IMG/VR virus record: IMGVR_UViG_3300045988_080276
Location: 1 to 13,576 of that record
Strand: one strand, 5' to 3'
Origin: a virus
Length of the DNA stretch: 13,576 nt
Shown here: piece by piece, positions 1 through 13,576 of the stretch
Position numbering within the stretch: the first letter of the stretch is position 1
Layout of the letters: the number at the start of each line of letters is the position of its first letter
Notes under the pieces: model-generated
Database searches by the model: none
Told to the model about the DNA's origin: nothing
What the model saw: the letters and a program-made list of their open reading frames with translations, nothing else
Made by a program: the position numbers and the translations under genes

Positions 1-139
1 CTTGGCAAGACCAACCTGTGAACAAATTGTTAACATTTCCCCAATCTGTTCATAATTGCAAAAAACTGGCATGAATATTGCTAGATAACTATAACATTAA
101 ATTGTCTGACAATATCATACAAAGTCGTCACTTATTCTA

Positions 140-168
140 TTGACATATTAGTTCAATTGGACTATAGT
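140..168 (+). promoter_or_regulatory. Near-consensus sigma-A/sigma-70 type promoter in the left ITR, firing inward
   Basis: The -35 is TTGACA (140-145), the spacer is 17 bp, and the -10 is TATAGT (163-168). The predicted TSS is near 175, just upstream of the small ITR ORF. Confidence 0.7.
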
Positions 169-200
169 AGACTTATCAAATGAAAGAGAGGAAACAAGAT

Positions 201-437
201 ATGAATAGCTTAGAAAACCTTAATGAGTTGTTGGAAAGGGCAAATGATGAGGGATATTGCTGGAGTGCTTTTGAGTCATTAGCTGGAGTTGTTGAAGTGT
301 ATGTGAACCGATTAGATAAATATAAGTATGATGTTTCTTACAAGGTACTCTGTACAGGTGCTGAGTACACTCGTACTTTTAACACTATAGTTGATGTCAA
401 GAGAGATATTTTAGATGAATTTCTATTTGAAGAGTAA
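201..437 (+). CDS. Small acidic hypothetical protein encoded in the ITR, left copy (78 aa from ATG 201; the ORF track gives 85 aa from ATG 180)
   Basis: The ORF track calls 180..437. ATG 180 lies about 5 nt from the predicted TSS and has no SD. ATG 201 has GAGAGG (186-191) 9 nt upstream. I count 16 D/E against 8 K/R in the 78-aa form. I recognise no family. An identical copy sits in the right ITR. Confidence 0.65.
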   Translation: MNSLENLNELLERANDEGYCWSAFESLAGVVEVYVNRLDKYKYDVSYKVLCTGAEYTRTFNTIVDVKRDILDEFLFEE

Positions 438-445
438 AAACAATA

Positions 446-463
446 GCCCAGCATCCGCTGGGC
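446..463. terminator. Hairpin terminator between convergent genes, shared by both strands
   Basis: GCCCAGC (446-452), loop ATCC, GCTGGGC (457-463). In the minus-strand sense, after the tail-fibre gene, it is followed by UAUUGUUUUUA, a good U-tract. In the plus-strand sense it is followed by CAUCUCUAUUAUU, a poor U-tract. Confidence 0.6.
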
Positions 464-474
464 CATCTCTATTA

Positions 475-1731
475 TTACATTGTGATTGAACCTCTATGAA
501 TTTGTACCTGTGTTACTTCTGTCAAAGTCCGGTAGTAGTGCTTATCGTCTGAAATATCATACAGGGCTAAATAGATATGCCTTCCTCGGAAGTTAAGCTG
601 TGCAGGGATGTGATAGAAATTACTTCCGGACTTAACGATCACAGTTGTTGGATAGCATGTGTATCCGTTATGATCTCCAATAAAAGACGTTGAGAAAATC
701 CGTCCCAAACGGTATTCCGTGCCATCACAGACAAGTGTTCCGCTGTTTGGGAGACAAACATAGTTACCCCATATCAGAGTACTCGTATTCTCATTATACG
801 AACTAACAAATGTCCAACTTGATCCAAGAGTTGGTGCAAAGTCACCTGCTTCAAAATTTGCAATAACATCATAAAATGATGGACTACACGATCCTGTTTC
901 TACAGCTGTAGCAAGATAGGCTGCAAGCCGTTCCTGCCCTGTTGTGTTTGGGTGAAATCCATCAGAAGCAAGAAAACCATCTGCATGAAGAATATAATCG
1001 CTTCCTGTCAAATACCGCCAATTCTTCCGCTGTATGTTATACACACTCTTCGCAGTCTTGAGCCTATTCTGTACATTTGGATCATCTGTCCGATCAACTG
1101 ACCATGCTACCATGGCAGAAAACACTTTGGCATTCGGAAATCTTGCTTCTGCTGCTCCCATAAAAGCGTTGATTCCGTTTTCAATTTCTGAGTAGCTTCC
1201 AAACTCATTAAATCCACCTACGACAAGGACCTGTTTTACATCCGCAGAAGCTGGTACAGCGTTTAACAACATAAGAAATGAATTAGTACTTGTTGAGAAA
1301 GATGCCCCACCATTTGCAGATATTGTGACATCCTCAAGTCCTGTGTACTTAATAAAGTTAGTTGTCCATGGAGTTACATTGCCATCCGGTGTATACCCAA
1401 CGGTATAACTGTCACCGATGATGATGGTTTTACCTGAGTGATCAAAAAGTCCTTCTCTTTTCTGTAATTTTGTGATCTCAGCTGTATTTGTTTCTACTTG
1501 CCCTTTTAATGGGTCAATCTGTTCAGTAATTACTTTGGTAGTAGCTTCATTTACTACTTTTCCAATCTCTCCATCATCAAGAGATTTCTGTATAGCATCA
1601 TCAATCATAGTCTGAGCTGTATCTTTGATGTGTGTCCACTCCTCGTGATCTTTGTCAGCCTGTTTGCCAACCTTCAGCATCCAGTCTAAGTTCATATCCT
1701 GCATGGAACTATGTGGATAATCAAAAAACAT
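475..1731 (-). CDS. Tail fibre/appendage protein with SGNH (GDSL) esterase domain, 418 aa
   Basis: All SGNH blocks are readable: I IIIGDSYTVGY, II ISANGGASF, III VVGGFNEF, V SDGFHPN. The first ~95 aa are coiled-coil-like and the last ~130 aa are beta-rich. It is the last gene of the structural array, where phi29 has gp12. The SD is GGAGGG, 6 nt before the ATG. Codons 102-418 lie inside the ITR. Confidence 0.75.
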   Translation of the reverse strand: MFFDYPHSSMQDMNLDWMLKVGKQADKDHEEWTHIKDTAQTMIDDAIQKSLDDGEIGKVVNEATTKVITEQIDPLKGQVETNTAEITKLQKREGLFDHSGKTIIIGDSYTVGYTPDGNVTPWTTNFIKYTGLEDVTISANGGASFSTSTNSFLMLLNAVPASADVKQVLVVGGFNEFGSYSEIENGINAFMGAAEARFPNAKVFSAMVAWSVDRTDDPNVQNRLKTAKSVYNIQRKNWRYLTGSDYILHADGFLASDGFHPNTTGQERLAAYLATAVETGSCSPSFYDVIANFEAGDFAPTLGSSWTFVSSYNENTSTLIWGNYVCLPNSGTLVCDGTEYRLGRIFSTSFIGDHNGYTCYPTTVIVKSGSNFYHIPAQLNFRGRHIYLALYDISDDKHYYRTLTEVTQVQIHRGSITM

Positions 1732-1743
1732 GTTATTCCCTCC

Positions 1744-2433
1744 TTAATAAATTAATAAAAGCAGATCCTGTGCAAATAACCCGGTGCAATAGTCAATGAA
1801 GCTTTGTTTCCTTAACTCAAGCTCTGACTGGATCATCTGCTGTGAAGTAGTAACACCAACGTTGCCATGAATACGCCCTACATGCTTATTCTGTCCAGTC
1901 TCTCTGCTTGTCTCACCCTTGCCATATTCAAATGTATTTTTGTTTTCTCCGGAGCTTTGTACTGTTGTGCTGCTACCGTACTCCGTTGTCGTTTTTTCGT
2001 TCGGGCTGTAATTTTGATCATTAAAAGCACTGACTTCATTGGTTGCTGTATCTGCCCCGGAGTTGGTCGTAGTGCTTCCATGTCCCGCTTCTTCCCTGTT
2101 GATATCCTGCCCGGAGCTTTGGCTTGTTCGTGTCATATCCGGGCTATCTGTCCATTCTTCATGACGATCATAGTTTTCAATAGGTTCATAATTAGTTAAT
2201 TCTAACACATTATAAACCTTGTCAATGCTTGTTTTCCATTTCATGCTCCAAGCAGGAATAGCACTGTTATACATGAAATCCCAGTCCGGATAGAGTGGCT
2301 CACAATCTCCATAGGACAGAAGCAGGCTATCAATAAAATTCTGCCTGTCTGCTGATTCTGGGAACTCCATCTTGTCAAACAGAGTACTGTTCCATTCGTA
2401 AAGCCCTGCTATAGTTACTCTATAAAGTCCCAT
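1744..2433 (-). CDS. Putative lower collar / head-tail adaptor protein (gp11 position), 229 aa
   Basis: It lies immediately downstream of the portal gene and overlaps it by 14 nt. The SD is GGAGGTG, 7 nt before the ATG. It has a Ser/Thr/Gly-rich central region and a conserved-looking C-terminus, GNVGVTTSQQMIQSELELRK. The function is assigned mainly from synteny with phi29 genes 10-11-12. Confidence 0.45.
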   Translation of the reverse strand: MGLYRVTIAGLYEWNSTLFDKMEFPESADRQNFIDSLLLSYGDCEPLYPDWDFMYNSAIPAWSMKWKTSIDKVYNVLELTNYEPIENYDRHEEWTDSPDMTRTSQSSGQDINREEAGHGSTTTNSGADTATNEVSAFNDQNYSPNEKTTTEYGSSTTVQSSGENKNTFEYGKGETSRETGQNKHVGRIHGNVGVTTSQQMIQSELELRKQSFIDYCTGLFAQDLLLLIY

Positions 2434-3340
2434 AAGGTTTCACCTCCACAGTCTCATAACTTCTGATCTTGATTGACAGGTCCATCTCCGGATAAAGTCT
2501 ATTTGTCATGTCAACACCTGCTTGCATGGTTTCAAGCCAAGTAGTTAGCCGTGTCACGGATTCTGCATCATTTTTGCTTGTCTCAAGCATATTCAATCGT
2601 TCTTTTTTATCAGATCCGACTGATGGGATGCCAACCTCTGTATCGAATTGATCCAGAAGTTTTTCAAAAACCTCAATAAGTTCTGGTGCAATAAAATTTT
2701 GCTTAAGATCCTTATTAAAAGTTTCCCATGCATCCTGCTTGCTTCCTTGTCTGTCCTCACTTTTTATTGATACGTCAAACGCTTCAACAGGGTTTCCTGC
2801 CTGGATGCTGTCATAGATTTTTTTCAATGTCTGAGCGGATGCCTTGTTTTTCGCAGCAATCAGAAAAGCAAGCTTTGAATTAAAAACATTCATGTCGAAA
2901 GCAGATGCTACAAGTGCCAGTTTGTAGCTGTAAAATCCGATAATGTCTCCAATCCCACAAAAAGTTGGTCTGAGATAGATGACAGAACAATCTTTTCCGA
3001 TCTCCATGTCTTCAATGTCAATAACAGCGTTGCTAGCATACGTGTGTATAGTTGCTATCGTTGGCTTGAAATAAATGTTATAGCCTGTCAGCATTGGGTA
3101 CTGCGCAATAAGTCCATAAAGATCTGTCTTTGTCACGCAAATATAGCCACCGAAAAGTAGGCAATATTTGAAGTAGTCAATATCAATGTTGGCATTATAT
3201 TTGATGTCAAGCACAGAGCATACACGCTCGTAAAGCATCCGATCAAATATATCTGTATATAAGCTGTCAACCTTAATTCCAGATGGTTGGAAGTAATTTG
3301 TACATATATTGATCTTGTCAAAATTCATAGGTGCCCACAT
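2420..3340 (-). CDS. Portal / upper collar (connector) protein, phi29 gp10-like, 306 aa
   Basis: Its size is close to that of phi29 gp10 (309 aa). The segment VGIPSVGSDKKERLNMLETSKNDAES resembles gp10 [28 protein letters not shown] (recalled from memory). The SD is AGGAGG, 9 nt upstream. It sits between the tail-knob and collar genes. Confidence 0.8.
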   Translation of the reverse strand: MWAPMNFDKINICTNYFQPSGIKVDSLYTDIFDRMLYERVCSVLDIKYNANIDIDYFKYCLLFGGYICVTKTDLYGLIAQYPMLTGYNIYFKPTIATIHTYASNAVIDIEDMEIGKDCSVIYLRPTFCGIGDIIGFYSYKLALVASAFDMNVFNSKLAFLIAAKNKASAQTLKKIYDSIQAGNPVEAFDVSIKSEDRQGSKQDAWETFNKDLKQNFIAPELIEVFEKLLDQFDTEVGIPSVGSDKKERLNMLETSKNDAESVTRLTTWLETMQAGVDMTNRLYPEMDLSIKIRSYETVEVKPYGTL

Positions 3341-3355
3341 TTTTTCATTCCTCCT

Positions 3356-4699
3356 TTATTCAAAATAAAAACCAGTGTTTAAATAACTGTTCACTTGATC
3401 CTGATCTCCCTCAAAACCTGCAAGCTGTATTGATGCATTCCTACATTTTACAAACCCACTCAATGAAGAAATAGTTCTAACAGTTTCGTCCACATAACCC
3501 TCGCTTGTTCCATCTGGATCAAGACTTGTACAGGCATATGAATTGAACTCTAAAATCTGGTTATTGAGTATATTTGATATATTACCAATAGTCCCCAGCA
3601 TAGATATTTCTGGTGCTGTAATGCTTCTTGCTACATCTATTCCTGCTGAGATACCTTGAATGTTTCCTTGTAATCCTGCACTAACAAGGCTCACAGCTGA
3701 TGTAGTCAACTGGGCTATGTTTGTAGTTGCATAACCAATTTGCACGGGCACTGACAACTGGAATTGATAAGATGCAAAAACAACTTTTTTTGACTGCAAA
3801 AATACATTGCATAATCCACTTGTTGCATCAAATTGATAGAGTGCATTTACGCTTTCATCAATTTTATAAGGGTTAAGGGCAACTACTCCAATAAAAGGAA
3901 GCTTAATAAAATAGGTTGAAAATGACGGACTATAATACCTAAAATCAGTGATAGCATAAAGTGGATTATCAAAAGCAAATGAATAAGAAAAATTAATAAC
4001 CGCATCTTCATCAATTCTTTTTGCCATTACACCACTATCCCAGAATCCTAGCTGTATTGCTTCACTATTACTATTTTTAAAGGCATCTTCAATAAATGGA
4101 ACCCATTTTAAATCAACGATATATTTAAAAGGGTCAAACATTAACTTTGTAACAGCATCCTTTATCACATCAGCAAAATTTGATTCTGTATACATATAGT
4201 CGAGTAACCTATTTAATTGGCTGCCATTAATGTAGTATGATGCAACTCCTGTTTTTGAAACTACTCGTATGATATATTGCTGTGAGTATGTTTGTGTCAT
4301 TATTTTTTCTTTGTGTCTCACATTTCTGGTTGTTAGCACCCAATCATTTGTTGGAATATACATAGAATCATTGGCAAGAGTAGTCTGCCTGCTTGATCTC
4401 TCAATAAAACATGTATAGTTGCCGATCTCTGTCCGGTAAGTTGCTAGCACATCCTCACTTGCTGAGATCTCAACCATGTCGTTATTTAATGATGTAGTCG
4501 AATTGATAAAATAATAATGGTCAGCCCATTTCAGATAGTTGTATTGCAATGCATTATCCAGTGATAATTTTAATTTAAACACTGGATTCTGAAAAGCGGT
4601 ATCAGCTTTTAAAAGGCAGGGGACAGAAGTCCCCTGCCCTGCTGGTCTTTTGGTGCTGTTTTTTCGTTTGGAAAAATGAAATAAAATAATCTCTGTCAT
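3356..4699 (-). CDS. Putative tail knob / major tail protein (phi29 gp9 position), 447 aa
   Basis: It lies immediately upstream of the portal gene, as gp9 does in phi29. The N-terminal region (YNYLKWADHYYFINSTT...EDVLATYRTEI) resembles my memory of the gp9 N-terminus. Its ATG overlaps the lysin stop codon (ATGA at 4696-4699). The SD is GGTGAGGT. Confidence 0.55.
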   Translation of the reverse strand: MTEIILFHFSKRKNSTKRPAGQGTSVPCLLKADTAFQNPVFKLKLSLDNALQYNYLKWADHYYFINSTTSLNNDMVEISASEDVLATYRTEIGNYTCFIERSSRQTTLANDSMYIPTNDWVLTTRNVRHKEKIMTQTYSQQYIIRVVSKTGVASYYINGSQLNRLLDYMYTESNFADVIKDAVTKLMFDPFKYIVDLKWVPFIEDAFKNSNSEAIQLGFWDSGVMAKRIDEDAVINFSYSFAFDNPLYAITDFRYYSPSFSTYFIKLPFIGVVALNPYKIDESVNALYQFDATSGLCNVFLQSKKVVFASYQFQLSVPVQIGYATTNIAQLTTSAVSLVSAGLQGNIQGISAGIDVARSITAPEISMLGTIGNISNILNNQILEFNSYACTSLDPDGTSEGYVDETVRTISSLSGFVKCRNASIQLAGFEGDQDQVNSYLNTGFYFE

Positions 4700-5346
4700 T
4701 TTACATATACCTCACCTTTTGCTGTGATGGCGCAGATCCATCCGGATGGAATCTTTACCCACGTTGCTCCGGCATCATCCTTTTTTATATCTTTTACCGT
4801 GACTGTGGTTCCTTTTTTCAGGCATCCATCTGAATGGGCATGTTTCATTCCATCAAAAGTTAGCTGTGCATACTCTTTGACCTGCCCCCATATGCTGTAG
4901 CGCACATGTAAGTGATCCACCATTGTAGTATAACTCTTACCTATTTCATAAGATGGACTTTTTTCATCCCATACCCTGCGGATGCAAGATAAGTCAGACC
5001 TACGAGTTACAAGACTTTTTACAACTCCAATACCTGGATTATTGACGGTATTTTTTCTTACTCCCCTGCTTTCAATCATATATCCATTACCGATATAAAT
5101 AGCACAGTGAGTAACCCTATTTCCAAAAAATAGAAAGTCACCTGCTTTCTGCTGCCCAATCGCAATCTTTGTTCCAATCTTGGAATAACCGGAAGCCGTC
5201 AGTCTTCCAACATTTGATCCAGCTGTCCTCTGGATCCAGTATAGCAACCCTGAACAGTCAAGTCCCTGTGTGGGGTTTGAACCACCCCACACATATCTCA
5301 CTCCAAGTAATTCCTTTGCATTTTCGACAAGTTCAATCGCTGTCAT
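4696..5346 (-). CDS. NlpC/P60 peptidoglycan endopeptidase with C-terminal SH3-like domain (endolysin or tail-associated lysin), 216 aa
   Basis: The catalytic Cys lies in GLDCSGLLYW and the His in VTHCAIYIGNGYMIES. The C-terminal ~80 aa (GATWVKIPSGWICAITAKGEVYV) look like a bacterial SH3 wall-binding domain. The gene is adjacent to the holin. Confidence 0.8.
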   Translation of the reverse strand: MTAIELVENAKELLGVRYVWGGSNPTQGLDCSGLLYWIQRTAGSNVGRLTASGYSKIGTKIAIGQQKAGDFLFFGNRVTHCAIYIGNGYMIESRGVRKNTVNNPGIGVVKSLVTRRSDLSCIRRVWDEKSPSYEIGKSYTTMVDHLHVRYSIWGQVKEYAQLTFDGMKHAHSDGCLKKGTTVTVKDIKKDDAGATWVKIPSGWICAITAKGEVYVK

Positions 5347-5356
5347 GTTATTATCC

Positions 5357-5581
5357 CTACTTTCCTAAGTGTTCAATTAAGGAATTCATTTTTTCAATGG
5401 CAACCGTATTATTTTTAATCACATTTGATAAGTTGTTAACCTCGTTTTTGTGTTCCTCATTGAGTTTATCAACTCTCTGATTGGTCTGATCGTACATGTA
5501 TTTAACAAAATACGCCATGGCACAACAACAAACAATTGGAAAAGCGTAGTTGCCTAAAATAGTTAAGAATGTGTCCATCAT
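5357..5581 (-). CDS. Holin-like protein (BhlA/UviB-type architecture), 74 aa
   Basis: It has a single N-terminal TM segment (NYAFPIVCCCAMAYFVKYM) followed by a charged coiled-coil tail, as in BhlA/UviB holin-like peptides. It lies directly upstream of the lysin. The SD is GAGGT, 7 nt before the ATG. Confidence 0.6.
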   Translation of the reverse strand: MMDTFLTILGNYAFPIVCCCAMAYFVKYMYDQTNQRVDKLNEEHKNEVNNLSNVIKNNTVAIEKMNSLIEHLGK

Positions 5582-5596
5582 ATTTTGTACCTCAAA

Positions 5597-6820
5597 CTAA
5601 TTATTACTAGGTGGCTTTGGTGCAACCTCCCCAAGCACGTAAAGAATAGCATTATGTGTGAAGTTGTTCCAAGCATTGAAGCGGTAGTGGTCAAAGATAT
5701 TGTAATATCCGCCTGCCGCATTGAATGGTGTAGTTGCAGAATACATCCACTGATTATTCACACCCATTGCTCTACGATCGTATAAAAGACCGAGTACATA
5801 AGGAATATTTACAGCTGAATTTGCTTTCTTTGAAACACCGTTCGCATCAATAATGTTTGGAGTGATGTTAATAGCTGGGCTGTCGAACTCCTGCCAGCCA
5901 TTTACCAGTTCTTTGTCGGCAATTTTAAGCTGTTCATCGTTAAATACCGTCGGGAATACCTGTGTTTCGCTGTCAATCCAGAAATCTGTGTACATGAGCA
6001 ACTTCTGGTTCTCCGGACGTGTAAATCTCAAGATATCTTTCCCAGTCAGATTCATGTGATATTTTGTTGTGCGATCCTGCATCTTCTTTGAGTCTTTCTT
6101 GATTCTTGCAACCACAAAAGCCATGAAATCTCTGTGATGTTCCGGGCTTAAAAGCTGTTTTCTTGTAAGATATGTACCATATGCTGTATTGTATTCATTT
6201 ACAAGATCAACCTCATTTGTGCCAAGTGAAGAGATACCCGCCATGAAGTTAAGCACCGTCATTCTGCGCTTTGCTTCGTTTCGGCTCTCGATGTCATTAT
6301 AATAAGCTGTCATGTATGAGCTTACAAACATAAGAAACTCTGCTTCGTTGGAAAAAGCAAGTGCCAGCTGATCCCGGAATCGTGTGATATGTGACTGAAG
6401 TAGCTTGCTTCCGTAGAATTTCAACTCAACTACTTTTGGGTTATTAATCTTGTACATATCCACAGACTGACCATCAGTAAGCTGGTTTTCATTCAAGTCT
6501 GTATTCCAATCCTGTGATGCTTCTGCATCCAATGGAAGTGAAATAATCTCACGTGTGATAGCTCCCCATCGCTCATTATCCTCAATGATGGAGCGAAACA
6601 CACCGGATCTGTACTTTTCCATTTCAAAATATGTTCGTCCACACCACTGGCTGAGTGCTTTTAGTGTTGGTTCTACTCCTGTCCGTAGCATGGTTTCACC
6701 CACAGACACAAATGAACTTGTATCCACTGCCTTAATGTTCTCCCTACCAGTAGCCATCTTGTACAGGTCATTAATGATGAGATAAGCATCCTGCACAACT
6801 AAACTATTTGCCATTTCCAT
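5597..6820 (-). CDS. Major capsid protein, phi29 gp8-like (HK97 fold expected), 407 aa
   Basis: It follows the scaffold gene, matching the phi29 7-8 order. The segment EFLMFVSSYMTAYYNDIE resembles gp8 FESFVSSIINAIYNSAE (from memory). The SD GAGGAGG is only 2 nt from ATG 6820 but 8 nt from the in-frame ATG at 6814, so the true start may be 6814. Confidence 0.8.
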   Translation of the reverse strand: MEMANSLVVQDAYLIINDLYKMATGRENIKAVDTSSFVSVGETMLRTGVEPTLKALSQWCGRTYFEMEKYRSGVFRSIIEDNERWGAITREIISLPLDAEASQDWNTDLNENQLTDGQSVDMYKINNPKVVELKFYGSKLLQSHITRFRDQLALAFSNEAEFLMFVSSYMTAYYNDIESRNEAKRRMTVLNFMAGISSLGTNEVDLVNEYNTAYGTYLTRKQLLSPEHHRDFMAFVVARIKKDSKKMQDRTTKYHMNLTGKDILRFTRPENQKLLMYTDFWIDSETQVFPTVFNDEQLKIADKELVNGWQEFDSPAINITPNIIDANGVSKKANSAVNIPYVLGLLYDRRAMGVNNQWMYSATTPFNAAGGYYNIFDHYRFNAWNNFTHNAILYVLGEVAPKPPSNN

Positions 6821-6829
6821 TACCTCCTC

Positions 6830-7159
6830 TTAATTCATGATTTTCATAAGATCTTCTGCCACGTTCTCAGATGTTCGTGGTGCTGATCCAGCTTTTCCGG
6901 ATGCCGAAAGGTTACCAGCCTGTAACGTAGCAGTCAATGTATTGATTGCTGTCAGAAGAGCTGCATTAGTTGCATCCTGTCCAGGAGTAACCTGTTCCGG
7001 AGTTGTAACCTGTCCCGGAGTTGTAACCTGTCCTGGAGTAACCTGTCCCGGAGTTGAAATCTGTCCAAGCCCAGACATATTCTGTGCATTCATAATTCCA
7101 ATGATCTCATCTTTTGAAAATCCAAGCTTTCCGAGTTCCAAAATTTCCTCTACTTTCAT
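6830..7159 (-). CDS. Putative scaffolding protein (phi29 gp7 position) with internal PGQVT repeats, 109 aa
   Basis: It is a small protein directly upstream of the capsid gene. The SD is AAGGAG, 6 nt before the ATG. The ends look helical and the centre is low-complexity. The function is inferred from position and size only (gp7 is 98 aa). Confidence 0.55.
   Translation of the reverse strand: MKVEEILELGKLGFSKDEIIGIMNAQNMSGLGQISTPGQVTPGQVTTPGQVTTPEQVTPGQDATNAALLTAINTLTATLQAGNLSASGKAGSAPRTSENVAEDLMKIMN
6968..7066 (-). repeat. In-frame tandem repeat encoding (T)PGQVT units
   Basis: The protein reads GQISTPGQVTPGQVTTPGQVTTPEQVTPGQDAT. The DNA shows about 5 imperfect 15/18-nt units (ggagtaacctgtcc / ggagttgtaacctgtcc). 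Confidence 0.8.
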
Positions 7160-7194
7160 TTTTATCTCCTTTTCTGCCGGAAGTTAAAATTAAA

Positions 7195-7266
7195 ATAGGT
7201 CAACGCTTCCGGGTTATCACCCCATGGCATCCGCTTCCGGCGGTCGATGTAGCCACGTTGACCTAT
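7195..7266 (-). ncRNA. Candidate structured RNA (three-way junction, ~72 nt) at the 5' end of the late transcript; could be an ncRNA, attenuator, antiterminator or pRNA-like element, function unknown
   Basis: The closing helix is 11 bp: AUAGGUCAACG (7266->7256) pairs with CGUUGACCUAU (7205->7195). Inside are two hairpins, CCGC-CGGAA-GCGG (7243->7231) and GGGU-GAUA-ACCC (7222->7211). The structure is followed by UUUAAUUUUAA and starts at the predicted TSS of the 7271-7299 promoter. Confidence 0.35.
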
Positions 7267-7270
7267 ATCT

Positions 7271-7299
7271 AATATATAATTTTTAAAATAGTTTGTCAA
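7271..7299 (-). promoter_or_regulatory. Near-consensus promoter for the structural (late) gene block
   Basis: On the minus strand the -35 is TTGACA (7299->7294), the spacer is 17 bp, and the -10 is TATATT (7276->7271). The -35 lies in the last codons of the ATPase gene. The predicted TSS is at about 7266-7263. Confidence 0.6.
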
Positions 7300-8329
7300 T
7301 ATAGAATTTTACAGAAATATTCTGGTAGCTGATTCTATTTGTCAGACGATAGCTGTCAATCCAGCTATAAAAGCACCGGAATTGGTCTTTTCCATGCTGG
7401 CTGTCTTCAAATACATCCTTGCAGGATCCGGAAATATGATCAGAAACATACAAGTGTGCTTTTGATTTATGCTCATAAATTGCAACTTTTCCGATCACAC
7501 AAATAAGCTTGTATTGACGGATATCTTCTGATCGGATCGCTGATATATCATCATATGCAAAATCGTTTGACAATGCCATCTTTTCAAAGTCTGTATCTCC
7601 AGATAAAGCACGATACAAAGCGGTATCTTTTTTCTTTTCCGATATTGGGGAATTATTAATCAGAATCAAGATGATTCCTCTCTCTTTTAACATGGAAAAC
7701 TCCTGCTTATTCTTTTTCATTCGTTCCAAGATCGGAAGCAACCCGAAAGCCTGCACAATTGGATTATCCAACGTGTTTGAGTTGGAAGCAAGCCACCATC
7801 GGAACGGTTTCTTTCCTTGTAGCTCCCTGTTTGCGGATATTGTTTCAACAGCATTCAGAAAAGCATCATCTTCCCCACTGATTGACTTGGCAATCTTTTC
7901 CGGGATAAACTCATCATAAATTCCCTCAGAGAAATCAGATCCAGAGAAACCACGGTTATTATGCATGGATGTAAGACAAAAAGCTTCACCCCGGTATACT
8001 TCTTCATCCTCTGTTTGCTCCATGATCTTAATGCGTCCGTATTCCCCTCTTGGTTTTTCAAAATGAAAAAACCTATTCATGTCCTTGTTTATGTCAATCC
8101 ATGGATCAAATTCCGGAAGAAAGACTTTTGTCAGCTGTTCTTTTGTCCGGCGCATGTAAATGATCTTCTCATTTTTCGAAAATACATCATTGATAAAGTG
8201 TTGGAAAATACCATATGTTTTTCCGGTTCGTCTGGCTCCAATAATGAATATGAAATTAATTTTATTTTTATCAGCCAGCTGGACGATCCTTGGAACATCC
8301 AGCCAACCATTTCTATCATAGATATTCAT
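7283..8329 (-). CDS. DNA encapsidation (packaging) ATPase, phi29 gp16-like, 348 aa from ATG 8329
   Basis: Walker A is FIFIIGARRTGKTYG (gp16: FVIGARGIGKSYA). IIYMRRTKEQLTKV matches gp16 FIYVRRYKPELAKV. Walker B is IYDEFIPEK (gp16: VFDEFIREK). The ORF track starts at 8377, but ATG 8329 forms TAATG with the upstream stop codon and has GGAGGTG ~10 nt upstream. Confidence 0.9.
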   Translation of the reverse strand: MNIYDRNGWLDVPRIVQLADKNKINFIFIIGARRTGKTYGIFQHFINDVFSKNEKIIYMRRTKEQLTKVFLPEFDPWIDINKDMNRFFHFEKPRGEYGRIKIMEQTEDEEVYRGEAFCLTSMHNNRGFSGSDFSEGIYDEFIPEKIAKSISGEDDAFLNAVETISANRELQGKKPFRWWLASNSNTLDNPIVQAFGLLPILERMKKNKQEFSMLKERGIILILINNSPISEKKKDTALYRALSGDTDFEKMALSNDFAYDDISAIRSEDIRQYKLICVIGKVAIYEHKSKAHLYVSDHISGSCKDVFEDSQHGKDQFRCFYSWIDSYRLTNRISYQNISVKFYIDKLF

Positions 8330-8628
8330 TACCGAAATCCACCTCCAGAGGATGCAGGCTCCGAATTCTGATTGCACTCATTGTATTTTTTGATGCAAGC
8401 ATCCTGCAATAATTTTTTCCATTCTTTATCAAGAGAATAAACAGAATTATAATACTTCCCGTCTTTCCCCTTTGTGCTTGGGAATGACAGGAAAAGACCA
8501 TCTTTTCCCTCAACCAACGTAAGAGCTTTGATAACCAATGTGTCATCCAGAGAAAGATCAACAAAGGCTTTTGTTTTTGAATTCCCATTATAAGGTTTGC
8601 AAGTAATTTTTACGTTTGATTTTAACAT
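8329..8628 (-). CDS. SpoVG-like nucleic-acid-binding protein, 99 aa
   Basis: KAFVDLSLDDTLVIKALTLVEGKDGLFLSFPSTKGKDGKYY aligns by eye with B. subtilis SpoVG [41 protein letters not shown] (from memory). The SD is AAGGAG. Translation appears coupled to the ATPase gene. Confidence 0.7.
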   Translation of the reverse strand: MLKSNVKITCKPYNGNSKTKAFVDLSLDDTLVIKALTLVEGKDGLFLSFPSTKGKDGKYYNSVYSLDKEWKKLLQDACIKKYNECNQNSEPASSGGGFR

Positions 8629-8629
8629 C

Positions 8630-8767
8630 TTATTTTGTCTCCTTTACATCAATTCTAATGATTTTTCCTACTTTATAAGCTACGATACTGATCTCATCAT
8701 CCTCATAGGTTACTTTTCGCAGGGTGCTTGTTTTCATAGTTTCATAGATTTCTGACATATCAATCAA
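8630..8767 (-). CDS. Mini-protein, 45 aa from TTG 8767 or 42 aa from ATG 8758; hypothetical
   Basis: This is the distal part of the ORF-track 81-aa ORF. A strong SD, AAAGGAGGTGAGG (8786->8774), sits 6-7 nt before an in-frame TTG and 15 nt before the ATG. The sequence is MSEIYETMKTSTLRKVTYEDDEISIVAYKVGKIIRIDVKETK. Confidence 0.45.
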   Translation of the reverse strand: MIDMSEIYETMKTSTLRKVTYEDDEISIVAYKVGKIIRIDVKETK

Positions 8768-8789
8768 TTTCCTCACCTCCTTTACTGAT

Positions 8790-8903
8790 TTAATCACCCA
8801 GCAGTAACAACAATTGACAGCTTGCAAACATGAAACCAAAAGCAATGCATGTCCAGAAAAACGTTTCAATGTCATCTTTGTTTTCTCTCCAAAATTTTTT
8901 CAT
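8790..8903 (-). CDS. 37-aa single-pass membrane mini-protein (absent from the ORF track)
   Basis: I translated it by hand as MKKFWRENKDDIETFFWTCIAFGFMFASCQLLLLLGD, followed by a stop. The SD is GGAGGTG, 5 nt before the ATG (8903). The hydrophobic stretch is 23 aa. It is the first ORF after the AT-rich intergenic region downstream of the polymerase gene. Confidence 0.5.
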   Translation of the reverse strand: MKKFWRENKDDIETFFWTCIAFGFMFASCQLLLLLGD

Positions 8904-8917
8904 AGTTACACCTCCTG

Positions 8918-8964
8918 ATTATAATTTAATATATTTATGTTACAAAACTATTACAATTTTACAA
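8918..8964 (-). promoter_or_regulatory. Candidate tandem promoters in the AT-rich intergenic region
   Basis: On the minus strand, TTGTAA (8956->8951), 17 bp, TATATT (8933->8928) forms one candidate. TTGTAA (8945->8940), 16 bp, TATAAT (8923->8918) forms a second. A third TTGTAA lies at 8964->8959. The second candidate would place the TSS inside the SD. Confidence 0.35.
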
Positions 8965-8968
8965 CAAT

Positions 8969-11092
8969 TTATCCGTATACGGTATCTTCAATCTCAAATG
9001 GTAATGGTAATCCGGTTTCCTTGTCATATGGTATTGTATGATCCAACTCGTATTCTGTATCGCTCAAGCGGATGGCACATCCATATTCAATCTTGCAACC
9101 GTCAATGATTACCTCATTTATTCCATCATGAAATATATATTCTGTCTTCATTTTCCACTTGGGATCCTGCCAATCATTCGATCTTCTGTAGTTCCTGCGG
9201 AATGTCAAGTCATTTCTGAAAATAAATCCTTTTCTAAAATTGGTTATATCATCGTTAAGGCAATAAATCCCCTCTTTTGGCACACCTGCGACTGTCAGAT
9301 GCAAGGATGCATCCTTTTTCAATCGGTAACAATAACGCTTGCTACCCATCGTTTTAAATTCACTGTATATCCCATCAAATTCAGCAATACCCAGTCGGAA
9401 TGTTTTAGAATTATACTCAACTACTCCGATGTTTCTTTTTTGTGACATTTCAATGATGGATCGATTAAATGAATCCAGTTTATCGTGATCCCAGTCTGTG
9501 CCCTTTACTGAATCTGTGTCTGAATATAACCAGTTCCGGCAACAGGAACCCAGCAGGAACAGATAAGCTTGTGCATACGCTGTGATCCATACCCCCCACT
9601 GGTAGGGCATGAAGCTGTTCTTGTTCCGATAGAACTTTTCAAGCTCTTTTTCCCTGTCCTCTGGTTCTTTTGATTCCCAGTCTCCGGAATCCATAAGCTC
9701 TGTACATAACATCTGAATAATTCTTTGAACTGTCATTCCGTACATACCATTTAATTCGCCTTTTGATATCATGTAGTTTTCTTCGTCCAAGCCTTTAAGG
9801 GTGCATTTTTTAAAAAACAATTCCATCAAATATCCGGTAAACCACTCCGGCAAGTAATCTTTTGTTGCCCTCATGACTTTTGACACATCGGCCCAGTCAT
9901 AGTCATAACTTGAAAGGATGACTTCTAAATCCGGATCCGTAAATGGATATATGACAAGATCAGCGTTGACGATCTTTCCATTATCCAGATTATCGTGGAA
10001 CTGTTCTTTTTTACTTTTTGCTTCCGGAAAAACACATACTTTCGCTTTTGAAAAAGCAAGTGGAGGCATAGGACAGTCTTTTTTTAGTCTCAGATTCTTT
10101 AATCTGATATATCCGGAAAAAGCATAGTCATCTTTCAATTCCATAATGTCTTTTAATGTTATATTGTTAGTATAACAAAATTTTGACATTGGAAACTTGC
10201 AATAGCACATCCATGCTATATAGGAACTTGTGAAATCGTAGCACTCAACAGGATCTTTTATCAGTTGGTTGACATAGTACCTATTGGCATGAGTATAACC
10301 ACCGTGATAGCAGTCAAGCATCTGGTCATACTGCTCCAACGTCAGAGCCATTTGTTCAAATTGCTTTCGCCATTTCTTGTCTTTTCTCGCTCGCCTGCGG
10401 GAATTGGCACGGATAAAACCTGTATTTGTCAACGGGCAGTTAGCCACGTTAAATCCTCTTTGGTTTATGTATTTGCGTAATGCCTTGCATAGACTGATTG
10501 TATCCGTACATACATATGCTATTTCTTTTGCTGTACGTGGGCTTTCCGGTGTTCGAAATTTCTTATAGTCCCATGTTCCAACTGCTTTCTCAGTTGTTCC
10601 CATGTCTTTGCAAAGTTTCTCAAGTGATCGTTGTGTGAGTATTAGACTATCACGGAATTCAATTCCCTGCGATGTCCATTTCATAAAAATATATTTATGG
10701 GTTTTAGCAGATAAAGACTTATCAGGATAGCCCCATTTTTGGAAAAAATGATTACGGAGAAAAACATAGTCATAAGGGAAATTGTGCACATAAAAGCGTA
10801 CAAGATGACTATCATCACTATGAAGAGTTGTACAGATCCTATCAATCGTATCAATCAGATCGGAAACATGATTACCGTAAATACAGCAATCATCCTCTAT
10901 AGTGATTGTCCAATCCGTGACAAAACCAATATCTTTGTTCATGTAAACAAATGTCTCTGTGTCTATAGTTATGATTTTTTCATAAACACCAAGATAATGT
11001 CCTGCATTGGACCTCCGGATAAAATCACCATCGAAAAGGCGCATATAATCATAATTTTTAAAATAAATAACCGGATATCCTGCGACTACCAT
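8969..11092 (-). CDS. Protein-primed family-B DNA polymerase, 707 aa
   Basis: The motifs are Exo I ITIDTETF, Exo II YVHNFPYDYVF, Exo III AYVCTDTISL, motif A YDFTSSYIAWM, motif B KGELNGMYGM, motif C LYSDTDS and KxY GSKRYCY. The SD is GGAGGG. Confidence 0.95.
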   Translation of the reverse strand: MVVAGYPVIYFKNYDYMRLFDGDFIRRSNAGHYLGVYEKIITIDTETFVYMNKDIGFVTDWTITIEDDCCIYGNHVSDLIDTIDRICTTLHSDDSHLVRFYVHNFPYDYVFLRNHFFQKWGYPDKSLSAKTHKYIFMKWTSQGIEFRDSLILTQRSLEKLCKDMGTTEKAVGTWDYKKFRTPESPRTAKEIAYVCTDTISLCKALRKYINQRGFNVANCPLTNTGFIRANSRRRARKDKKWRKQFEQMALTLEQYDQMLDCYHGGYTHANRYYVNQLIKDPVECYDFTSSYIAWMCYCKFPMSKFCYTNNITLKDIMELKDDYAFSGYIRLKNLRLKKDCPMPPLAFSKAKVCVFPEAKSKKEQFHDNLDNGKIVNADLVIYPFTDPDLEVILSSYDYDWADVSKVMRATKDYLPEWFTGYLMELFFKKCTLKGLDEENYMISKGELNGMYGMTVQRIIQMLCTELMDSGDWESKEPEDREKELEKFYRNKNSFMPYQWGVWITAYAQAYLFLLGSCCRNWLYSDTDSVKGTDWDHDKLDSFNRSIIEMSQKRNIGVVEYNSKTFRLGIAEFDGIYSEFKTMGSKRYCYRLKKDASLHLTVAGVPKEGIYCLNDDITNFRKGFIFRNDLTFRRNYRRSNDWQDPKWKMKTEYIFHDGINEVIIDGCKIEYGCAIRLSDTEYELDHTIPYDKETGLPLPFEIEDTVYG

Positions 11093-11107
11093 TACTTTCC
11101 CTCCATA

Positions 11108-11725
11108 CTATGGCCTGTATTTCAAAGCTTCCGCTTCACCTGAGAACCCCAACTGTTTTGCTATCGTGTCAGCCATATCTGGATCAGTTCTCCCCCGGAA
11201 TTTTTCCAAATCTTTTATAATTTCAGAAACAGTAGAATCATCCAATTTATGACTGATGATTCTCAAAGCTTGCTTGCTGTCATAGAAATTCTGAATCCGT
11301 TTCCAGACCTCAGATTTGAAAAAAAGTTTCATTTCTGTTTCTGACTTAAAGATAATTCCATAGCTTTCGAGCTTCTTTCGACGATTATCTATAATCTTCC
11401 TCCAACCCTGCACAGTGCTGCTTTTTTCTTTCAGTATTTTTTGTATTGCTTTGACCTGGGTTCTAGGCAATCCTTTATATTTTTCATTTTCCAGATTTTC
11501 CGGAATAGTGGATCGCCCTGGAAAAAATCTTGCAAGCAGATCTTGATAATCTGCGTACGCTCCTCCAACCTCTGAGTCAAACCCTTTTGCCTTTAACCTG
11601 CGCATACGCTGATTCAAACGTTTTGCAAGCTGTCTGCGGAGTTGCAAAGCTTCCATCGTTGTTAGCATGTTCGGGTTGACATTCAGACCCTTTGACGTGG
11701 TTGGGATTTTAGGATTCTTCGGCAT
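11108..11725 (-). CDS. Candidate terminal protein (by position), 205 aa
   Basis: It lies immediately upstream of the polymerase gene and is co-oriented with it, matching the phi29 gene 3-gene 2 order. The N-terminus is basic (QLRRQLAKRLNQRMRRLKAKG). The SD is AAGGGGGTG. I see no direct sequence similarity to any known terminal protein. Confidence 0.45.
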   Translation of the reverse strand: MPKNPKIPTTSKGLNVNPNMLTTMEALQLRRQLAKRLNQRMRRLKAKGFDSEVGGAYADYQDLLARFFPGRSTIPENLENEKYKGLPRTQVKAIQKILKEKSSTVQGWRKIIDNRRKKLESYGIIFKSETEMKLFFKSEVWKRIQNFYDSKQALRIISHKLDDSTVSEIIKDLEKFRGRTDPDMADTIAKQLGFSGEAEALKYRP

Positions 11726-12083
11726 TGTTAAGCACCCCCTTCATATATTCATATAGTTCATAAAAATCTCTAGTATTAATACAATAATCTAATTCTGGTT
11801 TTTTAATGATCAAATAGAGATTTTCGCAAATCACTCTTGCATCATTGATTGTATCATACACAAAAAATGAAGCACTAAAATTATCTTTCATAACACCTAT
11901 TACAGACTGTGCACGTGTGTACATTCTCTTGCGTGAGATCCGCTTTATAGTAACCTTTATTTCTGGATATTTTAATTCTATCATATCCGACCTGTCAAGA
12001 TTTGGTCTGGATTTAATAAGAGTTACAACCGGGGCTTTTACCCCGGTATTGGTATATTTGATTTTTGTGTATTTTGATTTCAT
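11709..12083 (-). CDS. Hypothetical early protein, 124 aa
   Basis: It is the first gene of the leftward array. The SD is AAGGAGG, 8 nt before the ATG. It overlaps the next gene by 17 nt. The N-terminus is basic. I recognise no family. Confidence 0.6.
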   Translation of the reverse strand: MKSKYTKIKYTNTGVKAPVVTLIKSRPNLDRSDMIELKYPEIKVTIKRISRKRMYTRAQSVIGVMKDNFSASFFVYDTINDARVICENLYLIIKKPELDYCINTRDFYELYEYMKGVLNNAEES

Positions 12084-12148
12084 TTACTATTCCTCCTTTA
12101 CAATCAATATTTAAGATTACAATAATCCATGACTTTTTGAAACCCTAA

Positions 12149-13102
12149 ACCATCATCATCGGTGACAGTTATACCGTTGGGTATACACCGGATGGCAATG
12201 TAACTCCATGGACAACTAACTTTATTAAGTACACAGGACTTGAGGATGTCACAATATCTGCAAATGGTGGGGCATCTTTCTCAACAAGTACTAATTCATT
12301 TCTTATGTTGTTAAACGCTGTACCAGCTTCTGCGGATGTAAAACAGGTCCTTGTCGTAGGTGGATTTAATGAGTTTGGAAGCTACTCAGAAATTGAAAAC
12401 GGAATCAACGCTTTTATGGGAGCAGCAGAAGCAAGATTTCCGAATGCCAAAGTGTTTTCTGCCATGGTAGCATGGTCAGTTGATCGGACAGATGATCCAA
12501 ATGTACAGAATAGGCTCAAGACTGCGAAGAGTGTGTATAACATACAGCGGAAGAATTGGCGGTATTTGACAGGAAGCGATTATATTCTTCATGCAGATGG
12601 TTTTCTTGCTTCTGATGGATTTCACCCAAACACAACAGGGCAGGAACGGCTTGCAGCCTATCTTGCTACAGCTGTAGAAACAGGATCGTGTAGTCCATCA
12701 TTTTATGATGTTATTGCAAATTTTGAAGCAGGTGACTTTGCACCAACTCTTGGATCAAGTTGGACATTTGTTAGTTCGTATAATGAGAATACGAGTACTC
12801 TGATATGGGGTAACTATGTTTGTCTCCCAAACAGCGGAACACTTGTCTGTGATGGCACGGAATACCGTTTGGGACGGATTTTCTCAACGTCTTTTATTGG
12901 AGATCATAACGGATACACATGCTATCCAACAACTGTGATCGTTAAGTCCGGAAGTAATTTCTATCACATCCCTGCACAGCTTAACTTCCGAGGAAGGCAT
13001 ATCTATTTAGCCCTGTATGATATTTCAGACGATAAGCACTACTACCGGACTTTGACAGAAGTAACACAGGTACAAATTCATAGAGGTTCAATCACAATGT
13101 AA
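12149..13102 (+). pseudogene. 5'-truncated duplicate of the SGNH tail-fibre gene (codons 102-418) inside the right ITR
   Basis: It is identical to the left copy from codon 102 onward. TAA at 12146-12148 replaces the AAA of codon 101. The first in-frame ATG is at 12305 (the ORF-track 265-aa ORF). That ATG has no SD, and the product would lack the GDS block I and block II. Confidence 0.7.
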
Positions 13103-13113
13103 TAATAGAGATG

Positions 13114-13131
13114 GCCCAGCGGATGCTGGGC
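13114..13131. terminator. Right-ITR copy of the hairpin terminator
   Basis: It mirrors 446-463. For leftward transcription from the right-end promoter, it presents the side with the poor U-tract. Confidence 0.6.
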
Positions 13132-13139
13132 TATTGTTT

Positions 13140-13376
13140 TTACTCTTCAAATAGAAATTCATCTAAAATATCTCTCTTGACATCAACTATAGTGTTAAAA
13201 GTACGAGTGTACTCAGCACCTGTACAGAGTACCTTGTAAGAAACATCATACTTATATTTATCTAATCGGTTCACATACACTTCAACAACTCCAGCTAATG
13301 ACTCAAAAGCACTCCAGCAATATCCCTCATCATTTGCCCTTTCCAACAACTCATTAAGGTTTTCTAAGCTATTCAT
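13140..13376 (-). CDS. Small acidic hypothetical protein encoded in the ITR, right copy
   Basis: It is identical to 201..437 (ORF track 13140..13397). Here it is co-oriented with the whole gene array. Confidence 0.65.
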   Translation of the reverse strand: MNSLENLNELLERANDEGYCWSAFESLAGVVEVYVNRLDKYKYDVSYKVLCTGAEYTRTFNTIVDVKRDILDEFLFEE

Positions 13377-13408
13377 ATCTTGTTTCCTCTCTTTCATTTG
13401 ATAAGTCT

Positions 13409-13437
13409 ACTATAGTCCAATTGAACTAATATGTCAA
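13409..13437 (-). promoter_or_regulatory. Right-ITR copy of the near-consensus promoter, firing leftward
   Basis: It mirrors 140-168: TTGACA, 17 bp, TATAGT on the minus strand. Confidence 0.7.
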
Positions 13438-13576
13438 TAGAATAAGTGACGACTTTGTATGATATTGTCAGACAATTTAATGTTATAGTTATCTAGCAAT
13501 ATTCATGCCAGTTTTTTGCAATTATGAACAGATTGGGGAAATGTTAACAATTTGTTCACAGGTTGGTCTTGCCAAG

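Follow-up and report, generated by a model that had tools for sequence, protein, structure and literature searches.

Inverted repeat of the window

How does a phage genome come to end, on both sides, in the same complete gene and the same large part of a tail gene? The question is raised by the virus record IMGVR_UViG_3300045988_080276 of IMG/VR, analysed here over its whole length of 13,576 bp (the window), which is closed by an inverted terminal repeat (ITR) of 1,430 bp. The evidence given below points with good probability to a recent terminal arm replacement, in which the tail-gene end of the genome was copied, inverted, onto the early end, that is, the end of the DNA polymerase gene. The window is accordingly classed with the phi29-like protein-primed podophages, its ITR being unusually long, gene-containing and, in this reading, derived from terminal arm replacement.

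Bases 1–1430 were compared with the reverse complement of 12147–13576, and no mismatch was found over the whole length. A perfect repeat of this size had been described in a preliminary reading of the letters alone (hereafter, the original prediction), and the comparison of the window with its own reverse complement confirms it. The identity breaks off at base 1431, and the sequences past 1430 at the same offset appear unrelated. Both arms together make up 2 x 1430 / 13576 = 21% of the window; the same share had been stated before, and the recomputed value agrees. The features of the two arms are as follows.

1–1430, plus strand: left ITR arm, original copy; continues unbroken into the rest of the tail gene (1431–1731)
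12147–13576, minus strand: right ITR arm, inverted duplicate; novel joint at 12146/12147
1–185, plus strand, mirrored at 13392–13576: core ITR, kept across the family; terminal sequence and promoter region, homologous to both ends of relatives
140–168, plus strand, mirrored at 13409–13437, minus strand: inward sigma-70-type promoter-like site, TTGACA-17-TATAGT (11/12)
180–437, plus strand, and 13140–13397, minus strand: open reading frame (ORF) of 85 amino acids (aa) enclosing the small gene
201–437, plus strand, duplicated at 13140–13376, minus strand: small gene, 78 aa, function not assigned; variable ITR-adjacent cargo
442–467, mirrored at 13110–13135: G+C-rich hairpin, bidirectional terminator-like, between the small gene and the tail gene
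475–1731, minus strand: tail protein, 418 aa, SGNH/GDSL hydrolase domain (PF13472, phrog_31573)
12147–13102, plus strand: truncated inverted copy of the tail gene, codons 101–418, with a 265-aa ORF from the first ATG at 12305

That the left arm is the original copy follows from its continuation into the intact tail gene. The edge of the ITR lies inside codon 101 of this gene, five residues ahead of the GDS motif, and 76% of the gene (318 codons, 101–418) is included in the repeat. In the truncated copy, the novel joint makes an in-frame TAA, and the first usable ATG gives the 265-aa ORF. The 418-aa ORF (475–1731) ends in the same 265 residues that make up this ORF (12305–13102), and the 85-aa ORF is present in each arm; both copies had been pointed out in the original prediction.

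According to that prediction, each arm holds a promoter, a complete gene, a terminator and three quarters of a tail gene. Promoter-like and terminator-like sites and the 76% of the tail gene were indeed located; the T-run of the hairpin is good toward the tail-gene direction and poor toward the small-gene direction. The complete gene is more probably 78 aa than 85 aa. The 78-aa protein has ten homologues (75–91% identical) and no Pfam or PHROG match. The start at 201 is most likely the correct one, not that at 180, because all ten homologues are shorter than 85 aa and eight of them have 77–79 aa from that start.

Assembly support for the joint

The same strain was located by exact-protein look-ups in run ERR414472 (PRJEB5224), a MetaHIT total human faecal metagenome. 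The look-ups with the 78-aa protein, the 124-aa protein of the early operon and the family B DNA polymerase (PolB) matched. Those with the 85-aa, 418-aa and 265-aa ORFs gave no match, because gene callers take the 78-aa start and the contigs break at the repeat.

In the MEGAHIT contig L069 (10,973 bp), the unique region is flanked on both sides by 127 nt of the repeat, which is precisely the k of the assembler. Compared with each other, the flanks are reverse complementary over exactly 127 bases, and the contig traverses the joint 12146/12147 without a branch. The Logan contig L068, which is 100% identical to the window, begins 30 nt (k-1) inside the repeat and also crosses the joint. In a third, scaffold-level assembly, the repeat is found alone as the contig L084, which is exactly 1,430 bp, corresponds to window 1–1430 and is listed for three samples or assemblies. 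This is the graph signature of a genuine inverted repeat: one repeat node is present, and both ends of the unique node are joined to its same side.

The k-mer across the novel joint is CCATGACTTTTTGAAACCCTAAACCATCATCATCGG. Because the contigs of k=127 and k=31 both traverse 12146/12147, the reads carry the joint, and because L069 is unbranched there, no competing early end survived in the MEGAHIT assembly. At contig level, the 1,430-bp ITR is real in the sample DNA and is not an assembler artefact.

Physical termini

The relatives used for comparison are about 50 IMG/VR contigs (L002–L052), whose PolB is 91–94% and whose DNA is 80–91% identical to that of the window, and the GenBank entry MT836115.1 (human faeces, Mexico); they belong with the window to one species-level group. 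AAACTTGGCAAG stands at both ends of nine IMG/VR relatives and at a single end of three others. The window starts with CTTGGCAAG and ends with the complement of CTTGGCAAG, and the relatives start with AAA-CTTGGCAAG. The window therefore equals the termini of the relatives minus three A at each end, and the separate repeat contig L084 likewise stops three bases short. We infer the terminal AAA of the window strain from the relatives; with AAA/TTT added, the full length is 13,582 bp. A triple terminal A is the type of reiteration used for sliding-back initiation in the phi29 group (PMC6266182).

Since the relatives share the same end sequence, the contig ends are the true physical termini, minus AAA at each end. 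It had been argued earlier that PolB and a candidate terminal protein mark true replication termini. The agreement with the ends of the relatives supports the termini themselves, and the terminal protein is assigned by position only.

Genome ends of relatives

The gene order, gene content, terminal sequence and ITR promoter of these uncultured gut relatives are those of the window. The early end of the window contains the following features.

12084–12146, minus strand: remnant of the ancestral early-end leader, 63 bp, upstream of the 124-aa gene
11709–12083, minus strand: 124-aa gene, opening the early operon; in relatives, it follows the ITR promoter at once or after one small ORF
11108–11725, minus strand: candidate terminal protein, 205 aa, by position only, immediately upstream of PolB
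8969–11092, minus strand: PolB, protein-primed type, 707 aa (PF03175, phrog_1907)

Contigs of relatives that reach both termini mostly have perfect ITRs of 223–254 bp, and the longest simple ITRs among them are found in L024 (334 bp) and, with two mismatches, in L002 (442 bp), compared with 1,430 bp in the window. The ITR of the relatives contains an inward consensus promoter, TTGACA-17-TATAAT (12/12), at the same place as the 11/12 site of the window. At the polymerase end, the 124-aa gene comes next after this promoter, in some relatives with one variable small ORF in between. At the tail end, the promoter is followed by a small, variable cargo gene; this gene and the tail gene are convergent, with the shared hairpin between them. 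In the place of the right arm of the window, the early end of the relatives has about 40–570 bp of other sequence and its own ITR.

The tail-gene fragment of the window matches about 50 relatives at the tail-gene end only, and never at the polymerase end. The region of the 78-aa gene has no DNA match in any IMG/VR relative, and the 85-aa protein gave spurious short matches only in IMG/VR. The Logan contigs L085 and L090 carry the 78-aa gene adjoining the tail gene, within the part of each contig covered, which does not extend to their early ends. Neither the 78-aa gene nor tail-gene sequence is found at the polymerase end of MT836115.1 or of the IMG/VR relatives, whereas the window has both there. 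A long ITR as a trait of the lineage, considered at the outset, does not hold, as about 50 relatives show another, unique early end and mostly ITRs of 223–254 bp. The unique early ends therefore point to a recent rearrangement in the window strain and not to an artefact.

The two copies of the core ITR are 100% identical within eight of the ten complete genomes, and the mean identity between genomes is 88%. Because the copies agree within genomes and differ between them, the core ITR (about 230 bp) evolves in concert in this family. Diverged arms also occur: 91% identity in L001, 90% in L041, 97% in L036 and 80% in L008.

No sub-lineage is closer to the window than that of L002 (about 90% DNA identity), and in L002 itself, the 442-bp ITR holds a complete 62-aa gene at both ends. 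In the contig L092, from an independent sample, the first bases (1–40) fall within the 3' end of this 62-aa ORF, so that L092 and L002 appear to share the repeat edge.

A homologue of the 78-aa gene (81% DNA identity) is located at 1343–1576 of L089, a 15-kb contig of Logan SRR31228216, among other short ORFs. L089 is a differently organised, unrelated phi29-like phage; the small gene therefore seems to move between phages.

Origin of the long repeat

The homology of the early-end remnant to the relatives begins about 27–36 nt from the joint. A 10-nt identity is present nearby: GACTTTTTGA at 12131–12140 corresponds to TCAAAAAGTC at 1442–1451. This identity is offset from the repeat edge by 6 nt on the novel side and by 11 nt on the natural side. 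A shared run of at least 10 nt was reached in 49 of 20,000 shuffles (p ~0.002). The sequences around the joint suggest that microhomology may have assisted in bringing the two strands into contact. A simple switch in one step at the 10-mer was also considered and rejected, because the repeat would then have to measure 1,451 bp instead of the 1,430 bp present.

The terminal arm replacement can be reconstructed as follows. The ancestor would have had a family-typical ITR of about 175–450 bp, composed of the end sequence, the strong inward promoter and a leader. Its early end would have led into a small ORF, the 124-aa gene, the candidate terminal protein and PolB, and its other end into a cargo gene converging on the tail gene. 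The polymerase would have initiated at the tail-gene end and copied 1,430 nt inward, and synthesis would then have resumed on the strand of opposite polarity at 12146, 63 nt upstream of the 124-aa gene, and continued to the end of that strand. A displaced single strand would be the most obvious acceptor. Alternatively, two genomes could have been fused head to head by illegitimate recombination, with an equivalent result. The product would be a full-length strand with complementary ends of 1,430 nt in which every conserved gene is kept. The ITR-proximal DNA of the ancestral early end would have been lost, and the promoter, the 78-aa gene, the terminator and codons 101–418 of the tail gene would have been gained there in inverted orientation, so that the 78-aa gene should now lie behind an ITR promoter at both ends. 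With the same origin at both ends, the molecule would replicate normally, and presumably it is packaged and viable.

Template switching by the polymerase seems the likeliest mechanism for this replacement. Inverted duplications of one genome end were reportedly obtained in vitro by Esteban et al. in 1997. Template switching of the phi29 polymerase in vivo gives subgenomic molecules from one end (Murthy et al., 1998, as cited in PMC4974454), and the route needs the phage polymerase and a displaced strand only. As in the window, one end is duplicated in inverted orientation, and the same origin is present at both ends. The phi29 products are subgenomic, defective palindromes, whereas the acceptor site in the window would be 10.7 kb away, which gives a full-length genome with all the conserved genes.

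A second promoter-like sequence, TTTACA-18-AATAAT (10/12), is located at 12097–12126 on the plus strand, directed outward from the leader of the 124-aa gene into the truncated tail-gene copy. If it is active, this site could express the 265-aa C-terminal fragment.

Mirror-image events in relatives

Events of the opposite direction are found in two relatives. In L004 (11942–12587) and L008 (12197–12933), the tail end carries an inverted copy of the 124-aa gene together with the N-terminal part of the candidate terminal-protein gene. Of the latter, codons 1–62 or 1–35 are duplicated, and they continue in frame into the C-terminal portion of a cargo ORF. The joint of L008 lies within an exact 7-nt microhomology (AGCTTGC), and that of L004 has weak microhomology only; each joint is unique in IMG/VR. 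The inverted arm of L008 is 80% identical to the other end of its own genome and is closest (87%) to another lineage. Because its arms are only 80% identical, L008 is not a fold-back artefact, and its arm would either have persisted or have come from a co-infecting strain.

Events in both directions are thus represented, by the window on the one side and L004 and L008 on the other, together with the gene-containing 442-bp ITR of L002 and L092. As judged from these ends, ITR length is a variable character in the phage group, and the window is its extreme.

Short proteins sharing the N-terminus of the terminal protein were considered as further fusions but are not counted as such; apart from the fusion ORF of L004 itself, two look like frameshifted genes, and the rest are unclassifiable short fragments.

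Evaluation of alternative explanations

Several points weigh against the terminal arm replacement. The microhomology is offset by 6 and 11 nt from the joint, and the observed sequence is not what a one-step switch there would produce. Identity to the nearest relatives is only about 90%, and the strain's own ancestral early end is not represented among the relatives. Every assembly tied to the joint seems to stem from one run or sample, and the support for the joint is at contig level only. From the ITR promoter, the early operon is now reached only across the 78-aa gene, the terminator-like hairpin, whose T-run is poor in that direction, and tail-gene sequence of about 1 kb in antisense, and no good substitute promoter for the early operon was found in the window. 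The loss of the direct promoter context should cost fitness, and this is the main argument for a defective or transient variant.

Such a variant would be real DNA but not an infectious genome, namely a by-product of template switching or a defective form needing a co-resident wild-type phage. We consider this unlikely. All genes that are conserved among the relatives are kept, in order, and only the variable small-ORF region, which is absent altogether from some relatives, is lost. The length of 13,582 bp is counted as within the size range of the family (12,877–13,556 bp for complete relatives). The MEGAHIT contig has no wild-type branch, so that the helper genome would have to be much rarer than the by-product, and the known by-products of phi29 are subgenomic. 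These points stand against the early operon without direct promoter context, against the presence of intracellular replicating phage DNA in total faecal DNA, and against the build-up of template-switch products from one end in phi29 infections, as related in PMC4974454.

Another explanation is a fold-back chimera from library preparation, amplification or the assembler, the true genome having an ITR of about 230 bp and a unique early end. It would fit with the relatives being without the arrangement, with the repeat edge cutting through a gene and with the evidence coming apparently from one sample. A gut-virome study also cautions that the ITR contigs of metagenome catalogues may include artefacts (PMC9610469). 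However, the same topology is present in three assemblies (MEGAHIT k127, Logan k31 and scaffold-level) with no competing branch, and the three are consistent with joint-spanning k-mers at every offset. A de Bruijn assembler needs reads to link two sites without a k-1 overlap, and random chimeric fragments would not outcompete the true path. The diverged arms of L008 are moreover a genuine terminal inverted duplication in the family. The source project is MetaHIT total faecal DNA, the protocol of which is not known to include multiple-displacement amplification. A chimera is therefore quite improbable.

In the original prediction, the perfect identity over 1.4 kb was read as a sign of active homogenisation, which would keep an established ITR identical by panhandle repair or gene conversion. 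The concerted evolution of the core ITR is in line with this, and the L002-type ITR, with the whole 62-aa gene, appears again in an independent sample, so that extended ITRs would be inheritable. Recency nevertheless suffices as explanation, as zero differences in 1,430 bp are expected from a very recent event alone, and homogenisation of an established long ITR is hardly credible: tail-gene sequence is at the early end in no other contig among the approximately 50 IMG/VR relatives (the early ends of the closer 78-aa-gene carriers L085 and L090 being outside the comparison), the exact 30-nt joint sequence has no match in IMG/VR or JGI metagenome contigs, and the diverged arms of L001, L041, L036 and L008 are tolerated. 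A circular genome with internal inverted repeats is ruled out, as the outer repeat ends are the termini common to many relatives.

Genome content and classification

All long ORFs outside the right arm are on the minus strand. The classification as a self-contained linear genome of phi29 type, made in the original prediction, is borne out by the presence of the protein-primed-type PolB and the phi29-type capsid, connector and packaging ATPase. The phages concerned are of Salasmaviridae/Guelinviridae type (the former Picovirinae). The morphogenesis genes are as follows.

2420–8377, minus strand: morphogenesis block (Pfam and PHROGs)
7283–8377, minus strand: gp16-type packaging ATPase (Pfam, PHROGs)
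5597–6820, minus strand: phi29-type (gp8-like) major capsid protein (Pfam, PHROGs)
4696–5346, minus strand: NlpC/P60 tail lysin (Pfam, PHROGs)
3356–4699, minus strand: tail protein (Pfam, PHROGs)
2420–3340, minus strand: gp10-type connector (Pfam, PHROGs)
within 2420–8377, minus strand: 109-aa repeat protein and 74-aa protein

PolB matches PF03175 with E 3.5e-11, above the curated cut-off, and phrog_1907 with 2e-49. The motifs Exo I–III, A, B, C and KxY are all present. The best cultured matches, at about 31% identity, are Clostridium phage HM2 and the Amedibacillus phages AD70P2/P3 (12.2–12.3 kb); no match in the PDB was found by phmmer. The host is probably a gut member of the Bacillota. At 90% identity, the PolB cluster comprises about 1,400 sequences. 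For the capsid, connector and ATPase together, PF25622, PF05352 and PF05894 are each above their own cut-off, and the PHROG matches agree.

The 205-aa protein encoded upstream of PolB has no match in Pfam, PHROGs or a PDB sequence search (single sequence and profile). Its AlphaFold2 model is all-alpha, with a pLDDT (predicted local distance difference test) of 84. In a Foldseek comparison of the model, no fold match was found in the PDB and no named relative in BFVD; the fold resembles only unnamed proteins of about 200 aa from metagenomic Podoviridae/Tectiviridae. The 205-aa gene is thus a candidate for the terminal protein by its gene position only.

The 12,146 bp of non-redundant sequence had been regarded as near the lower limit of tailed phages. 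This cannot be maintained, since smaller related PolB podophages of 10.4–11.7 kb are in GenBank.

The MEGAHIT contig has one additional AAT unit at the C-terminus of the capsid gene (around 5596–5605) relative to the window and the Logan contig, which is either a small within-sample polymorphism or an assembler difference.

A 99-aa protein of the SpoVG family (PF04026, 4e-17) is encoded at 8329–8628 on the minus strand, just upstream of the packaging ATPase. It is kept in all relatives and in the unrelated phage L089, and it is possibly a DNA- or RNA-binding protein of the replication or packaging module.

The 109-aa gene, between the ATPase and capsid genes, contains tandem 18- and 51-bp repeats at 6968–7066 on the minus strand, which code for PGQVT-like units. 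This repeat region varies among the relatives.

No Rfam match for a packaging RNA (pRNA) was found in the window at E up to 1. The gap at 7160–7282 on the minus strand, between the ATPase gene and the 109-aa gene, is 83–98% conserved over 50 relatives (at least 88% in most), which is more than the approximately 80–85% of the coding DNA compared elsewhere. The predicted fold of this gap is a three-way junction of about 70 nt with compensatory changes in the outer stem. On the 3' side of the junction, there is a U-rich tract, followed by the near-invariant CTTCCGGC, which is the exact complement of GCCGGAAG in one hairpin loop. The element may act as a pRNA analogue, as a terminator or in the control of translation.

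Comparison with known systems

Streptococcus phage Cp-1 and Bacillus phage phi29 share with the window a linear genome, a terminal AAA (in the window strain, expected from the relatives), adjacent genes for the terminal protein (in the window, the candidate) and PolB, and the gp8-, gp10- and gp16-type capsid, connector and ATPase. They differ in that nearly all genes of the window are on one strand and no pRNA is found there by Rfam. The ITR is 236 bp in Cp-1, compared with 1,430 bp in the window, 6–16 bp in the phi29 group (PMC6266182) and 25–30 bp in Clostridium perfringens podophages.

Lactococcus phage asccphi28 (Salasmaviridae), also a protein-primed podophage, has an ITR annotated as 577 bp, long enough for promoters and terminators; the inverted similarity of its ends extends over 609 bp at 98.7%. 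This 577 bp is the longest ITR that could be verified in a characterised phi29-like phage. It is non-coding and 2.5 times shorter than that of the window, in which one whole gene and three quarters of a structural gene are enclosed. The earlier statement that characterised relatives have much shorter ITRs is in accord with these values.

Kilobase ITRs exist in other protein-primed replicons, for example in the linear plasmid kalilo of Neurospora (about 1.3 kb). End-to-end copying is likewise known for other protein-primed replicons, as in the ITR repair of adenovirus. Kalilo-type plasmids and adenovirus belong to other hosts and replicon types and are not tailed phages.

Implications

The terminal repeats of metagenome contigs are used in pipelines as a flag of completeness. 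According to the present results, a metagenome contig with a long perfect ITR is not necessarily artefactual, and the graph signature at contig level provides a cheap check.

The ITRs of protein-primed phages are usually treated as short, fixed origins. The gene-containing ITR described here is 2.5 times the longest verified in a characterised phi29-like phage, and even close relatives have ITRs of unequal length. Within a single phage group, three or four independent events indicate that genome ends are copied onto each other in nature, and the window would give the template-switch model of how ITRs arise a concrete case from nature. A route for duplicating or exchanging early, ITR-adjacent cargo genes is also suggested.

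As a more tentative proposal, which we put forward as a possibility, terminal arm replacement may be a recurrent and heritable reshuffling of end-adjacent genes, with the ITR as a sliding boundary that absorbs genes from either end. If this is true, it would provide natural, full-length evidence for the template-switch origin of long ITRs proposed from the phi29 in vitro work. The absorbed genes would then sit behind the strong ITR promoter at both ends, the dose of the cargo would be doubled, and the cargo would be expressed whichever end enters the cell first.

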